The notes: a model not told the origin generated them from the letters alone. Shown: positions 51,372 to 56,851, counted from the first letter of the stretch. The stretch is 64,000 bases of DNA from Nitrosopumilaceae archaeon (GCA_965208905.1 OZ242365.1:800001-864000); one strand, 5' to 3'. A program made the numbers and translations.

Positions 51372-52193
51372 GTGGGCCTATTTGGTAGAGACGAGAATCC
51401 TGAATATTTAATGCGTCAAGCCATGCTATTTATGCAAAAAAATCAACACAAAAAAGCTGTTGGAGAATTTAAAAAAATATTAAAACAGGAACCAAGAAAT
51501 GAAAAAGTTCTATATCAAATTGGGATTGCTCTGAATGGTTTAAAAAAACACAACGACACAATAACATATGCAGATAGAATTCTTGAAATAAATCCTAAAA
51601 ATACTGGCGCCTACAACAATAAAGGAAAAGCCTTTGCAGAGATGGGCAATCTTGAATCGGCCATTAAATGTTATGATGAAGCTATTATTGCAAATTCTAA
51701 GGATTATGAGGCGTATTTTAACAAGGGTGTACTTTTAGCAAAGATTCAAGACTATGACACCGCCTTAGAACTGATTAAAAAAAGCATATCTTTGAATAAA
51801 AAAAACCCTGCTCTGCATCTGCACTCGGGAATAATTTTAGGAAAGATGAAGAAAAATAAAGAGGCATTAAAAGTTCTTGAAAACATTGAACGTAAATTTG
51901 GAGCCCATCCGGATGTTACCTTCCAGCAGGGAATACAGCTGGCAGAGATGGGCGAACACAAAAAAGCAATAAAAATATTTGAAAATATGGGAGAGTCTCA
52001 TGCAGATAATGTAAATATAATATATGCAATATCGCGTAGTCGGGCTGCCATAGGCGAGTACGATGATGCATTACGTCTGTTAAAGAAGGCCGTATCCAAG
52101 AGTCCCAAAGTAATACGGGCATGGGCCAAAGATGAAGACATCTTTAATCCACTACATGCGAATAAAGCCTTTAGACGTCTGGTAAAGATGTAG
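51372..52193 (+). CDS. Tetratricopeptide repeat protein
   Basis: Repeated AYNNKG / AYFNKG TPR units. Confidence 0.85.
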   Translation: MGLFGRDENPEYLMRQAMLFMQKNQHKKAVGEFKKILKQEPRNEKVLYQIGIALNGLKKHNDTITYADRILEINPKNTGAYNNKGKAFAEMGNLESAIKCYDEAIIANSKDYEAYFNKGVLLAKIQDYDTALELIKKSISLNKKNPALHLHSGIILGKMKKNKEALKVLENIERKFGAHPDVTFQQGIQLAEMGEHKKAIKIFENMGESHADNVNIIYAISRSRAAIGEYDDALRLLKKAVSKSPKVIRAWAKDEDIFNPLHANKAFRRLVKM

Positions 52194-52464
52194 ACTGTCT
52201 CTTTAGTGTGTCCGATAATAGTGCCGATATAAAACCATCAAATTCATCATCAGAAAAATCCACATAATCAATGAACTCCTCCTTTGATGCACACTTCAAG
52301 TGATAGCATTGTACATTGGGGTTGTAATAGTATGCAGGACAAGAACAGTAATTAAAAGATGGGGCCATCCAATGCTCGGCCTCCTTGCCAATCATGGTCC
52401 ATATGCATCTGCCACTGGGCATAAATCGATGCACCTTGACCCTTCCGTTAGATGTACTCTTCAT
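52171..52464 (-). CDS. SWIM zinc-finger protein
   Basis: YCSCP.......CYH; overlaps carB stop (ATGA). Confidence 0.75.
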   Translation of the reverse strand: MKSTSNGRVKVHRFMPSGRCIWTMIGKEAEHWMAPSFNYCSCPAYYYNPNVQCYHLKCASKEEFIDYVDFSDDEFDGFISALLSDTLKRQSTSLPDV

Positions 52465-55400
52465 GTTTTATTATCTGTAGGTGGTATAAGATATGGTTGT
52501 ATGGGATAGCGGGTTGTCTTGTTTGTCTTCATCCATTCGAGTGTATTTACAAAGGCGTCTGCCAGCTCTATGGTGGTCAGGACAGGTATCCCCAGCTCCA
52601 ATGCCTTGCGCCGTATCTGATACTCGTCCTCAAGCATACCGATGTACTTTTCTAGTGTGGATGTACTGGGAATATTGATTATAAAGTCTATCTTCCGGTT
52701 GTATAACATGTCGGCGATATTTGGCTTTCTATTTGGCTCAGATATTTTATGGACTACTTTGATGGCGCCTAGTCTCTCCTCAAAGAACTCTGCAGTATGT
52801 TCGGTGGCCAATATATTAAAGCCCAATTCATGTAGTTTGGCCACACTAGGTAGTAGTTTCTCTTTGTTTCGTATGCCGCCTACAGTTACCAGCGCCGTGC
52901 CATGAGACGGCAAGTTGTAGCCTACCGCCGTCAGCCCCTTGGATAATGCATCATAAAAACTCTGTCCAAAACATGCCGCCTCACCAGTAGAGTGCATCTC
53001 CACACCCAATGTCAAATCGGCACCCTCCAACTGCATAAAAGAGAACTGCGGCACCTTTATGCCAAAGTTGGGTATACCTCTCCAATGATCAATGGGTACT
53101 TTGGGTAGTTTCATACCTAGTATGGACATGGAGGCCAGTGATATCATGTTTATGCCCACCAGTTTTGATACAAACGGCATGGACCGTGATGCGCGTATAT
53201 TCAGCTCTATAACATACACCTCATTATCATGTATTAAGAACTGTAGATTGAACGGCCCCCTTATACGAAATGTACGGGCTATCTTGATGGTGTACTCAGT
53301 TATGGTCTCTATGGTCTTGTTGTTCAATCGCCATGGTGGTATGGACATCATGGCATCGCCAGAGTGAACCCCGGCGCTGTCTATATGTTCTACTATGGCA
53401 CCAATTATAACATCGGTACCATCAGATACGCCATCCACATCCACCTCCAGTGAGTCTAACATGAACTTTGATATCACCACCGGATGGTTTGGCGAGAGGT
53501 TTGTGGCTTTGCGTGTGTAGGTGCGCAGCTCATCATCGGACCAGACCACCTTCATGGCGGCGCCTGAGAGTACATAAGATGGTCTTACCAGTACAGGGAA
53601 TCCCACCTCCCGGGCAAAGGAGCGAGCTTCGGGTAACTGGGAGAATGCTCGCCATTGAGGCTGACGAATGTGTAATTTATCTAAAGCTGCGCTGAACTTT
53701 GAGCGGTCTTCTGCGCGGTCCACATCTGACGCAAGCGTCCCTAGTATGGGAACCCCGCCCAGAGCCAAGGCCGGTGTAAGATTGTTGGCGGTCTGACCTC
53801 CTACACATGTAACTACCCCCCGGGGCTGCTCAAACTCAATTATATCCATTATGCGCTCAAATGTAAGCTCCTCAAAGTATAACCTCTCGCATATATCATA
53901 GTCGGTGGAGACAGTCTCAGGATTGCAGTTTACCACCGAGACGGGCATCTTGCCGTGTTCCCGAATGCCCCAGACCATATTGACCGTTCCCCAGTCAAAC
54001 TCCACACTACTTCCTATTCTGTATGGCCCGGCCCCAATGACCATTATGCCTCTACCATCATCGTTGGGTGTGGCTATATCGTGAGTCTCTCCTCCATATG
54101 TCATGTATAGGTAGTTTGTGGCAGCAGGCCATTCGGCCGCCAACGAGTCTATCTGTTTGAGACTGGGCAGTATGCCCATCTCTTTGCGCATACTGCGTAC
54201 TTGCGCATCTGTCTTCTGCCACGCTCTGCCAATCTGTACATCCGAAAAACCAGCAGCTTTGGCCTCCCGCAATATACTGGTATCTTTTGATGATGCCATG
54301 GATGTCTGAACCTGCACAATATGTCGTATCTTTTCTATAAACCACGGGTCTATGGCTGAAAGTTTTGTTATTCTCCTTGTACTGAATCCTGCCATGATGG
54401 CTGTCACAACATGATACAGTATGCTATCATCAAGATGGACAAGTCTGTCTTCAAGCTCTTCCTCTGTATACTCTTTAGTTGCAAACCTGTTCAGCACCAG
54501 ACCATCCATGCCTATATCCAACATGCGTATGGCCTTTTGAAGGGACTCTTCAAATGTACGCCCAATTCCCATGACCTCCCCGACAGACTTCATGGTGGGG
54601 CCTAATCTACGCTCTACCATGTCAAATTTGGCAAAGTCCCATCTGGGATGTTTACATACTATATAATCCAATGACGGCTCAAAACATGCAGTAGTCTTTT
54701 TGGTTATTGTGTTTGTCAACTCGTGCAGTCCATATCCCAAGCCTATCTTGGCAGACATGTACGCCAACGGGTACCCGGTAGCTTTGCTGGCAAGGGCTGA
54801 TGAGCGAGAAAGTCTGGGATTTACCTCTATGGCCACATACTTTTCAGAGTCTGGACTCAGAGCAAACTGTATGTTACACTCGCCCACTATGCCTATGTGC
54901 TTGGTGGCCCGGAGTCCTGCAGATCTTAGTATGTGATACTCTCGGTTTGTCAATGTCTGTGAGGGTGCAACAACTATGTTGTCGCCTGTATGTACCTTCA
55001 TGGATAGCACATTCTCCATATTGCATACAATGACACCATTGTCTTCTGCATCCCGCATTATCTCATATTCGATCTGCTTCCATGCTCCAATGTACTCCTC
55101 TATCAGAACCTGCCCAACCATACTGGCCTTGAGGCCTCTCTCTACAATCTCGTGCAGGTCCAGTTCGTTATATGCAACACCGCCACCCTTGCCCCCTAGA
55201 GTATATGCTACTCGGACTATTACCGGAAAGCCTAACCTTTGGGCTGTCTTTTTGGCATCCTCAAAGTTGGTTACTGTATCACTTGGCAGTACCGGTACGT
55301 CGCAGTCCACCATGGCATCCTTGAAGAGTTGTCTATCTTCGGTCATCTGTATACCTTCTATCTTGGTACCCAACACTTCAACACCATACTTTTTTAGCGT

Positions 55401-55740
55401 GTCACTTTGAGCCAGACTTACGCCACAGTTTAGCGCAGTCTGTCCACCGTATGAGAGCATTATTGCATCAGGACGCTCTTCTTCAATAACAGATTTGACA
55501 TAGTCTGGCGTAACTGGTAAGAGGTACACCTTATCGGCAAAGCGTGTGTCGGTTTGGATGGTGGCAACGTTGGGGTTTATGAGTATGCTATGAAGCCCAT
55601 CTTCCCTTATGGCTTTGAGGCATTGGCTGCCGGAGTAGTCGAACTGGCGGTCGATTTTGGCGACTTTCGCCGGCTTCTCCGATCTTTATTGCCCCACTAC
55701 CAAGTACCAGTATATTCCTTAATGTCTCACGTCTAGGCAG
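52461..55740 (-). CDS. carB: Carbamoyl-phosphate synthase large subunit; two exons (55740-55666 and 55643-52461), 1085 aa if spliced
   Basis: Exon 1 (CTG) PRRETLRNILVLGSGAIKIGEAGE + exon 2 FDYSGSQCLKA...INPNVATIQTD; two ATP-grasp domains and an MGS domain with no other disruption. Confidence 0.92.
55644..55665 (-). other. Candidate 22-nt BHB-type mRNA intron in carB
   Basis: GGCG-AA^A-GTCG-CCAAAAT-CGAC-CGCC-AG^T: 4-bp central helix and 3-nt bulge; cutting after the 2nd bulge nucleotide on each strand restores GGC GAA TTC GAC TAC. Confidence 0.8.
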
Positions 55741-56851
55741 GCCGGGGGTCCTCCATCATACTCTGCAACTCCTTGAAGATAAATTCACAATCGTACGGCC
55801 CTGGCGATGCTTCAGGGTGAAACTGCACAGCAATGCATGGCCGAGTCTTGTGTCTTATACCTTCAACGGTACCATCATCGGTATTGGTAAACCATAAATC
55901 AAACTCCGAATCCGCCAAGGATTCGGGACTAATAGCATAGCCATGGTTCTGACTGGTTACGTGAACCTGGCCTGTGGATACATCAAGACATGACTTGTTC
56001 TGACCTCGGTGCCCATACTTTAGTTTGTAGGTCTTTGCATTGCCAGCTAGGCTTATGATTTGTGCCCCCAAACATATTCCCAACATCGGTATGTCCTCAT
56101 CTAGTATTTTACGTGCAGCATGTATGGTGTCTGGACAATGAATTGGGTCTCCGGGCCCATTACTGATAATTACGCCTGCAGGATCGTACGAGAGTATGTC
56201 TGATACTTTTGTATTATATGGAACCTTTACTGCACGATAGCCTAGATTTACAACGTGGCGCAGAATTGCATTCTTCGCACCCGTATCTACAACTACCACG
56301 TTGCGACCTGAACCAAACGTCAAATGTTTCTTGGTAGATACATCATCCACTAGATGTTCTGAGTTATACTGGGGAGCATCTGGCAGTTGCTCTTTTAGTA
56401 TGTCTGTATCTATGGGATGCTCTGAGACCTTTAGGGCGGCCATGCGCACGCCATCTTCGCGTAGGGATTTTGTGAGGTGTCTTGTATCTATTCCAGATAT
56501 GCCTGGTATGTTGTTTTTGTAGAGCCATTCATCTAAAGTCATAGATAGATTCCAATGACTGGCAACTTTGGTTAACTCGTGTATGACAAGACCACGTACC
56601 TGTATACTGTCAGATTCAAAGTTCAATGGTATTCCTGAATCATCAGTCACTGCGGGGTCGGGGACGCCATAATTTCCCACCAAAGGATATGTTATGGATA
56701 AGATTTGGCCTTTGTATGAGGGATCTGTCAGTGTCTCGATATACCCCACCATTCCTGTGTTGAATACGGCCTCACCGAACACCGTCTTTGGGTACCCAAA
56801 ACCCTCTCCCTCAAGAACAACCCCATCATCTAGAACTAATGCTGCAAACAT
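55733..56851 (-). CDS. carA: Carbamoyl-phosphate synthase small subunit
   Basis: GEAVFNTGMVGY, SNGPGDP, LGICLG, SQNHGY, QFHPEASPGP. Confidence 0.96.
   Translation of the reverse strand: MFAALVLDDGVVLEGEGFGYPKTVFGEAVFNTGMVGYIETLTDPSYKGQILSITYPLVGNYGVPDPAVTDDSGIPLNFESDSIQVRGLVIHELTKVASHWNLSMTLDEWLYKNNIPGISGIDTRHLTKSLREDGVRMAALKVSEHPIDTDILKEQLPDAPQYNSEHLVDDVSTKKHLTFGSGRNVVVVDTGAKNAILRHVVNLGYRAVKVPYNTKVSDILSYDPAGVIISNGPGDPIHCPDTIHAARKILDEDIPMLGICLGAQIISLAGNAKTYKLKYGHRGQNKSCLDVSTGQVHVTSQNHGYAISPESLADSEFDLWFTNTDDGTVEGIRHKTRPCIAVQFHPEASPGPYDCEFIFKELQSMMEDPRPA

Follow-up and report, generated by a model that had tools for sequence, protein, structure and literature searches.

Evidence for a relaxed bulge-helix-bulge intron, removed from mRNA, in the carB coding sequence of ammonia-oxidising archaea

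Introns of the bulge-helix-bulge (BHB) type, in which a 4-bp helix lies between two bulges, interrupt archaeal tRNAs and rRNAs, and the cbf5 pre-mRNA of Crenarchaeota reportedly carries one as well. In the sections consulted of Yokobori 2009 (PMC2738675), pre-mRNA splicing is stated to be confirmed for no archaeal gene other than cbf5, and a table credits neither Cenarchaeum symbiosum nor Nitrosopumilus maritimus with a cbf5 intron. A later paper, in the part consulted, names cbf5 as the only reported coding-region case as of 2020 and adds an intron of its own in a 5' untranslated region (5' UTR; PMC7714728). Here we describe a 22-nt insert in carB, which encodes the large subunit of carbamoyl-phosphate synthase, in a 64,000-nt stretch of DNA (the window) from a Nitrosopumilaceae archaeon (GCA_965208905.1 OZ242365.1:800001-864000), a sponge-associated ammonia oxidiser. 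The insert is very probably a BHB intron, and as far as the literature searched shows, carB is the second protein-coding gene family to have one, after cbf5.

In cbf5 of Crenarchaeota and in carB alike, a short intron lies in a protein-coding gene with a relaxed BHB at its borders, in lineages that have, or for carB would have, a hetero-oligomeric splicing endonuclease and that show patchy presence or loss of the intron (for cbf5, PMC2738675, sections consulted); unlike cbf5, carB encodes a metabolic enzyme, and the lineage is Nitrososphaeria. The 5' UTR intron of HVO_1309 in Haloferax volcanii is similar in that an mRNA is cut by the tRNA splicing endonuclease and the removal matters for expression, but it lies in an untranslated leader where no frame is interrupted, and the enzyme is of the euryarchaeal type (PMC7714728, part consulted). 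With the introns of tRNA and rRNA, carB shares the motif and presumably the enzymes, the endonuclease EndA and the ligase RtcB. Unlike theirs, its host RNA is translated, so that splicing must precede or compete with translation, and its closing helix is made of codons, so that synonymous sites are constrained. HAC1 and XBP1 mRNAs lose a very short intron to a protein endonuclease and a tRNA-type ligase, with no spliceosome and with a change of reading frame. The mechanism is like that proposed for carB, but the HAC1/XBP1 endonuclease, IRE1, is unrelated and is switched on by stress. This unconventional splicing by IRE1 and tRNA ligase is named in the parts consulted of PMC13149111 and PMC4090602.

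The single carB of the window's genome is split between codons 25 and 26, inside the motif GE/FDYSG (a slash marks a junction or cut site):

55666..55740, minus strand: carB exon 1, 25 codons, starting with CTG (55740-55738) and ending in GGC GAA
55644..55665, minus strand: 22-nt insert read as a BHB intron, AGUCGCCAAAAUCGACCGCCAG, absent from RNA contigs, present in a DNA contig and matched by homologous inserts
52461..55643, minus strand: carB exon 2, 1060 codons plus stop, beginning FDYSG (TTC GAC TAC, from 55643)

On the minus strand the insert reads AGTCGCCAAAATCGACCGCCAG (55665 to 55644), between ...GCCGGCGAA at the end of exon 1 (55666) and TTCGACTAC... at the start of exon 2 (55643). 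Spliced CarB has 1085 aa, from 25 codons of exon 1 and 1060 of exon 2, with the junction peptide IGEAGEFDYSGSQCLK. Unspliced, the exon-1 frame runs into a stop at the 26th codon past exon 1, which gives a product of 50 aa. The Pfam profile CPSase_L_D1 is cut exactly at the insert, with positions 3-20 in exon 1 and 21-117 in exon 2; in the CarB of an intron-free relative, positions 3-117 are matched in one piece. The NCBIfam carB models TIGR01369 and PRK05294 match exon 2 from profile position 25-26 to the end.

Twenty public runs, five of them recorded as RNA, were found to contain at least part of the stretch, and the label is in most cases sponge or marine metagenome. We compared the region 55200-56100 with three RNA runs from three studies and with one DNA run from a fourth. 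A 922-nt contig of RNA run X12 lacks 22 letters at 55644 and is otherwise identical, and a 770-nt contig of X17 has the same 22-letter gap at 55644. In the third, X20, the contig matches as far as 55643 and is then followed by TTCGCCGGC; read as its reverse complement, this is the final nine letters of exon 1, so that the junction is the same. In the DNA run, X8, a 2114-nt contig still contains the insert. Spliced RNA reads GGCGAA/TTCGAC, which fixes both cuts, because the intron starts with A and exon 2 with T, and exon 1 ends in A and the intron in G; both cuts fall 2 nt after a strand of the central helix listed below. Only the spliced form was observed in the RNA contigs.

These contigs bear on the idea that the 22 nt stay in the message. 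In phage T4 gene 60, a 50-nt gap is bypassed in translation and remains in the mRNA. At the DNA level carB is alike, with a short untranslated insert in an essential gene, and the insert folds into a hairpin; both features could be taken to favour bypass of this kind, or programmed frameshifting. The carB RNA of all three studies, however, lacks the insert, and the homologous inserts, at 17-38 nt and spread over all three frame classes, cannot be covered by any one frameshift rule. We regard this explanation as scarcely credible.

The homologous inserts have the character of non-coding sequence. Among the matches listed there are 148, which represent 96 distinct sequences of 17-38 nt, and the same cut spacing restores GE/FDYSG in all 148 parsed. 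Their lengths are free of the reading frame, the 96 distinct sequences dividing into 40/31/25 by length modulo 3. All 40 distinct in-frame inserts bring an in-frame stop, which lies inside the insert in 32, in the last codon in 3, and in both places in 5. In the other two frames of the same 40 inserts a stop was found in 1/40 and 7/40, and in shuffles in 29%; the rows are related, so that the stop count describes a pattern and is not a probability. The loop sequences of the introns are not conserved across relatives.

Around the insert, the RNA can be drawn as a relaxed BHB:

55672..55682, minus strand: closing exon-exon helix, 5' strand (UCGGAG 55682-55677, AGC 55675-55673)
55668..55671, minus strand: central 4-bp helix, 5' strand GGCG in exon 1 (columns 15-18 paired with 53-56 of alignment A1, 96.9% paired)
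55667-55665, minus strand: 5' bulge AA/A, with the 5' cut after 55666
55650..55664, minus strand: intron hairpin (GUCG 55664-55661, loop CCAAAAU 55660-55654, CGAC 55653-55650)
55646..55649, minus strand: central helix, 3' strand CGCC in the intron
55645-55641, minus strand: 3' loop AG/UUC, with the 3' cut after 55644, fixed by the RNA junction
55630..55640, minus strand: closing exon-exon helix, 3' strand in exon 2 (G 55640, CU 55638-55637, CUCCGG 55635-55630)

The structure was assessed on an alignment of 113 distinct sequences, each made up of 20 nt of exon, the insert and 20 nt of exon, in which MAFFT confined the gaps to the loop; a pattern search with fixed exon letters had supplied 89 of the 113 rows. 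On the BHB structure 96.1% of cells were paired, as against 88.2 ± 0.4 in shuffles, and 154 cells carried double-sided changes (shuffles, 55.8 ± 10.6). The covariation score was 0.318 compared with 0.175, and on all five measures the observed values were reached by 0/500 shuffles. As a control, sliding the partner by 1-3 columns left at most 52.8% paired. The covariation signal is carried by the intron hairpin, which, like the intron strand of the central helix, is unaffected by the fixed exon letters: its first four pairs all change on both sides across relatives, single pairs being for example UA 65, CG 37 and UG 11; CG 85, UA 21, UG 6 and AU 1; or AU 51, GC 46 and UA 7. RNAalifold, given no structure, returned the same fold with three extra exon-exon pairs (exon-exon columns 4-9 with 67-72, then 11:65, 12:64 and 13:62; central helix 15-18 with 53-56; bulge 19-21; intron hairpin 22-25 with 49-52; and a 5-nt 3' loop AGUUC).

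The geometry is invariant in 113/113 distinct rows: beyond a 4-bp helix, each strand is cut at a distance of 2 nt; the 5' bulge has 3 nt in all rows and the hairpin 4-5 bp. The central helix pairs GGCG with CGCC, CGUC, CGCU or CGCA, and in a few lineages GGUG with CACC or CACU, so that in the latter a synonymous exon change is matched by a change in the intron. A search of Rfam 15 gave 0 matches at E ≤ 1 in 55300-56000. A preliminary description of the locus, made from the sequence alone, had proposed the BHB intron. Its coordinates, lengths and motif are correct, as is the 50-aa unspliced product, and every helix it drew (the 4-bp helix, the intron stem next to the 3-nt bulge and the relaxed 3' loop, and the closing of CGGAG on CUCCG) was recovered. 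Its rule of a cut after the second bulge nucleotide, removing exactly 22 nt to give a 1085-aa CarB, agrees with the junction seen in RNA, and the intron itself is borne out by the contigs of three studies, by covariation and by the presence of genes for EndA and RtcB.

Several points weigh against reading the insert as a spliced BHB intron. The 3' splice site sits in a 5-nt loop opposite one unpaired base and not in a canonical 3-nt bulge, for which reason we call the motif relaxed. Folded singly, the window's own 66 nt are not exceptional (z = -1.28), so that it is the relatives and the RNA contigs that speak against chance. The minimum free energy structure of these 66 nt is a competing hairpin (55646-55671, minus strand) of -17.2 kcal/mol, against -15.3 for the BHB fold. 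It can form because introns of this genus begin with GUCGCC or GCCGCC, which lets the exon GGCG(A) pair with the 5' part of the intron; in relatives with GUCA and UGAC stems it is impossible. The RNA evidence consists of assembled metatranscriptome contigs and not raw reads, so rare variants are dropped and no ratio of spliced to unspliced form is obtained, and the DNA and RNA runs compared belong to different studies and not to one sample. The N-terminus of CarB is a predicted one, because a canonical start codon is missing from exon 1. Finally, since the search pattern fixed exon letters, part of the pairing counted in the exon-exon helix and on the exon side of the central helix is built in.

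For this last reason the exon-exon helix was judged on 46 loci found by protein search. All five core pairs (CGGAG with CUCCG or CUCUG) are formed in 27/28 intron-bearing loci as against 2/18 intron-free ones, and the glycine codon is GGC in 26/28 intron-bearing loci, while the 18 intron-free genes use all four glycine codons. Only in genes with the intron, then, are synonymous exon sites frozen. With the insert observed in DNA, RNA lacking exactly the 22 nt, a conserved and covarying structure, a single carB and the enzyme genes in the same genome, we put the probability that the 22 nt are a genuine relaxed archaeal BHB intron in the carB coding sequence, spliced from the mRNA, at about 0.94.

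The genome holds the splicing machinery that such an intron would need. Two EndA paralogues of 177 and 178 aa were found, each having both endonuclease domains (N- and C-terminal) and a score over the TIGR00324 cut-off, together with one RtcB in a 483-aa open frame, and ARAGORN predicts an intron in 6/48 tRNA genes. The signature of archaeal EndA is a 4-bp helix with both strands cut 2 nt beyond it, and the archaeal splicing endonuclease is said to cut two nucleotides past either strand of the central helix. An enzyme of the hetero-oligomeric type, with broad specificity, would be in keeping with the two paralogues. In the part consulted of PMC5829648, EndA of the (alpha-beta)2 and epsilon2 types is described as cutting non-canonical introns. 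We infer that EndA and RtcB are the acting enzymes and that splicing is constitutive. It might be supposed that other enzymes remove the segment, for example a different endonuclease that recognises the hairpin or an ATP-dependent RNA ligase, given that the 3' site departs from the canonical bulge; but the geometry fixed in all 113 distinct rows is that of EndA, and the tolerance of the (alpha-beta)2 and epsilon2 enzymes (PMC5829648, part consulted) is a further point against it, so that we hold this to be very improbable.

No further gene of this kind emerged from a screen of the genome for the carB-like geometry. Candidates had to be 18-60 nt long and to combine a strict 4-bp helix with a 3-nt bulge and a hairpin of 4 bp or more; the frame had to be open for 20 or more codons ahead of the site and for 250 or more beyond it, and to be broken without splicing. 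Such a screen would miss relaxed or very short forms. From 1072 raw candidates, two were left after filters for start codon, coding score and exon helix: carB and one false positive. The latter lies in a gamma-glutamyltranspeptidase-like gene, in which the unspliced reading continues as a normal C-terminus, and it was rejected. The cbf5 of this genome is uninterrupted, in one open frame of 333 aa.

Relatives were searched with the protein of exon 2. The carB loci came from 40 relatives, ten further genomes of the class and seven further loci; 46 were classified, one (L053) being left out after it failed the motif filter. An insert at exactly this codon boundary was present in 28/46 and none in 18/46. 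A pattern scan of one genome per species added at least 120 further stretches. The intron-pattern matches listed include Nitrosopumilaceae, Nitrososphaeraceae, Nitrosotalea, Nitrosarchaeum, Nitrosocosmicus, Nitrososphaera, Cenarchaeum and Nitrosomirales, among them the cultured strains Nitrosotenuis chungbukensis MY2, Nitrosopumilus salarius BD31, Nitrosopumilus sp. b1 and Nitrosotalea bavarica.

When the class was sampled evenly, 230/401 genomes contained the pattern GGYGAR-N(12-42)-AN-TTYGAYTAYTCNGG, and the reversed pattern, used as a control, gave 0 matches. The sample includes five unpublished genomes (G159, G250, G299, G340 and G376), all of which match; without them the count is 225/396. 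carB itself was found in 350/401. By family, the pattern occurs in 150/223 genomes of the window's own (f1), in 69/78 of f15, 4/4 of f4, 3/11 of f10, 1/1 of f13, 1/1 of f2 and, in another order, 1/9 of f18; all remaining families have 0, including f9 (0/10). The window's genus has it in 8/8 and genus g14 in 23/84. In a sample of the phylum, 27/301 genomes carry the pattern, all in the window's family, with 0/257 outside the class; both scans fix some exon letters (GGYGAR, and TCN for serine), and other forms would be missed. Two genomes (G325 and G402) gave two matches each, in G325 on different contigs; these could be a second carB, a strain mixture or contamination.

A frameshifting insert near the 5' end, in a gene whose exon 1 has no canonical start codon, could also be taken for the mark of a decaying pseudogene, or for an assembly or sequencing artefact. 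Exon 2, however, is an intact frame of 1060 codons with full-length carB profile matches, and it belongs to the only carB of the genome. The insert recurs in a DNA run of independent origin, and the 8 other genomes of the genus all have it, as do 230/401 genomes of the class, with compensatory changes. Decay or artefact has in our view next to no chance of being the explanation. The genome, one contig of 2.21 Mb, has a single carB, and the sole other match of the carB search is an ATP-grasp enzyme of 25% identity. The preliminary description had suggested checks for a second intact carB, which the genome lacks, and for a same-position insert with compensatory stem changes across Nitrososphaerota, which the class sample provides together with strong covariation. 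Its claim that arginine and pyrimidine synthesis depends on splicing follows from the single copy. It had also known of no described carB intron, and none was found in the full-text literature searched, which covers few subscription journals.

Upstream, carB overlaps the gene for the small subunit:

55733..56851, minus strand: carA, small subunit, 372 aa (from the list of open reading frames; Pfam CPSase_sm_chain and GATase)

The carA stop TAG (55735-55733) lies within an 8-nt overlap with the start of carB (CTGCCTAG). No ATG, GTG or TTG is present in the exon-1 frame, which has 30 open codons in the window. The CTG aligns with the starts of relatives, which are ATG in 13 loci and TTG in 5, and CTG itself is found in 17/46 loci. 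A GGAGG stands about 10-14 nt upstream of the CTG, and the CTG overlaps the end of carA. Taken together this suggests that CarB synthesis starts by coupled re-initiation at a non-canonical CTG. Four deeper-branching loci (L029, L031, L037 and L052) have an exon-1 frame without ATG, GTG, TTG or CTG at or near the aligned start, and in three of them (L031, L037 and L052) such a codon is found only 6-12 codons further in; unusual carB starts may thus be wider than the CTG case. Downstream of carB lies a 97-aa open reading frame (52171-52464, minus strand) that overlaps the carB stop and has no Pfam match, followed by a gene for a TPR protein.

The history of the intron was followed on a quick CarB tree of 48 rows, from which one locus (L137) was dropped, as it has only 32 aa before a stop. 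The label 'intron' changes 8 times on this tree, at least 4 of the changes being forced by well-supported branches. Genes with the intron are spread over Nitrosopumilaceae, Nitrososphaeraceae and, within the order, several smaller families, and intron-free genes are nested among them; L012, L013 and L015, for example, stand beside the intron-bearing N. salarius. We infer that the intron is old, that in ammonia-oxidising archaea it has passed on mainly by vertical descent, and that it has been lost repeatedly; gain by transfer may also have played a part.

Outside the class, the matches listed include four inserts of 17-18 nt with a different stem at the same boundary (L111, L139, L137 and L154). 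Two are in metagenome-assembled genomes (MAGs) labelled Methanosarcinales (L111, L139) and one is labelled 'archaeon' (L154); these three have 18-nt inserts, with the stem UCU with AGA or CCUU with AAGG. L111 has carA upstream, and not an endonuclease, and forms a long branch outside the ammonia oxidisers on the quick tree. The fourth, in a MAG labelled Woesearchaeota (L137, carB insert in the region 1412-1500), has a 17-nt insert at the same site. A 451-aa open reading frame with LAGLIDADG_3 and HTH domains (L137:1584-2939, minus strand) ends just upstream of its carB start, and its exon 2 has an in-frame TAG 32 codons past FDYSG, at a conserved position, which could mean a broken gene, an error or recoding. 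A 2484-nt contig labelled Candidatus Heimdallarchaeota (L091) carries a 21-nt intron of the Nitrosopumilaceae type. It was rejected as a case of an Asgard intron, as its CarB falls inside Nitrosopumilaceae on the tree, and it is probably a mis-binned contig.

In the window's genome, PF14528 (LAGLIDADG_3), the one LAGLIDADG family searched, has no match anywhere, and no free-standing LAGLIDADG gene stands directly beside carB, whose neighbours are carA, the 97-aa frame and the TPR protein. A wider history can be proposed, in which the carB mini-intron is one ancient mobile element that targets the invariant GE/FDYSG codons and has spread, with the help of a free-standing LAGLIDADG endonuclease, across archaeal phyla, namely the ammonia oxidisers, DPANN and the Methanosarcinales-labelled MAGs. 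In ammonia oxidisers it would have been domesticated after loss of the endonuclease, with exon codons frozen for the splice helix, an in-frame stop kept in every in-frame variant, and carbamoyl phosphate synthesis gated by the capacity to cut and join RNA. We consider such a history unlikely.

For the relaxed BHB intron as described, the following course of events can be proposed. carA and carB would be transcribed, and the first 100 nt of carB would fold into the relaxed BHB, with GGCG paired to CGCC, the AA/A bulge, the hairpin of GUCG and CGAC, and the closing helix between the exons. Judging by this geometry and by the gene content, EndA would cut at GGCGAA/A and AG/U, and RtcB would join the exons. 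Only the spliced mRNA would let the ribosome make the 1085-aa CarB, and ribosomes on unspliced RNA would stop after 50 aa here, or at an in-frame stop in relatives. Since carB is present in a single copy, CarB depends on splicing.

It is tempting to see a control point in this dependence, at which EndA and RtcB, through their capacity or their regulation, or else the competing fold, would limit the synthesis of CarB and with it the supply of arginine and pyrimidines, with the in-frame stops kept as a fail-safe against translation of unspliced RNA. The single essential copy, the retention of the intron in 230/401 sampled genomes, the in-frame stops (40/40 in-frame introns against 29% in shuffles) and the slightly greater stability of the competing hairpin over the BHB fold in the window's genus could all be read in this way. 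On the other hand, the stop codons may largely be inherited, so that the rows lack independence, the loop sequences show no conservation, and the competing hairpin cannot form in relatives with GUCA and UGAC stems. The intron has moreover been lost in many lineages without visible consequence (f9 has it in 0/10 genomes, and 61/84 genomes of g14 are without it), and the RNA contigs show the spliced form only. We therefore consider a regulatory role doubtful, and this reading of the carB intron is currently unsupported.

Whether or not the intron regulates anything, carB is likely to be an annotation problem. In the frame of exon 2 the first ATG, GTG or TTG comes 38 codons past the junction, and a gene caller is therefore expected to truncate carB or to call it broken. 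If this is so, metabolic reconstructions and pseudogene counts would be off for hundreds of genomes. The spliced BHB intron described here sits in a central metabolic gene in over half of the sampled genomes of a class that includes globally abundant ammonia-oxidising archaea, and de novo synthesis of arginine and pyrimidines by this route would be impossible without the enzymes of tRNA splicing. The case bears on how a splice motif built of codons shapes synonymous sites and on how introns enter and leave protein genes. It also offers an experimentally tractable example of how a message is spliced in time under the coupled transcription and translation of archaea.

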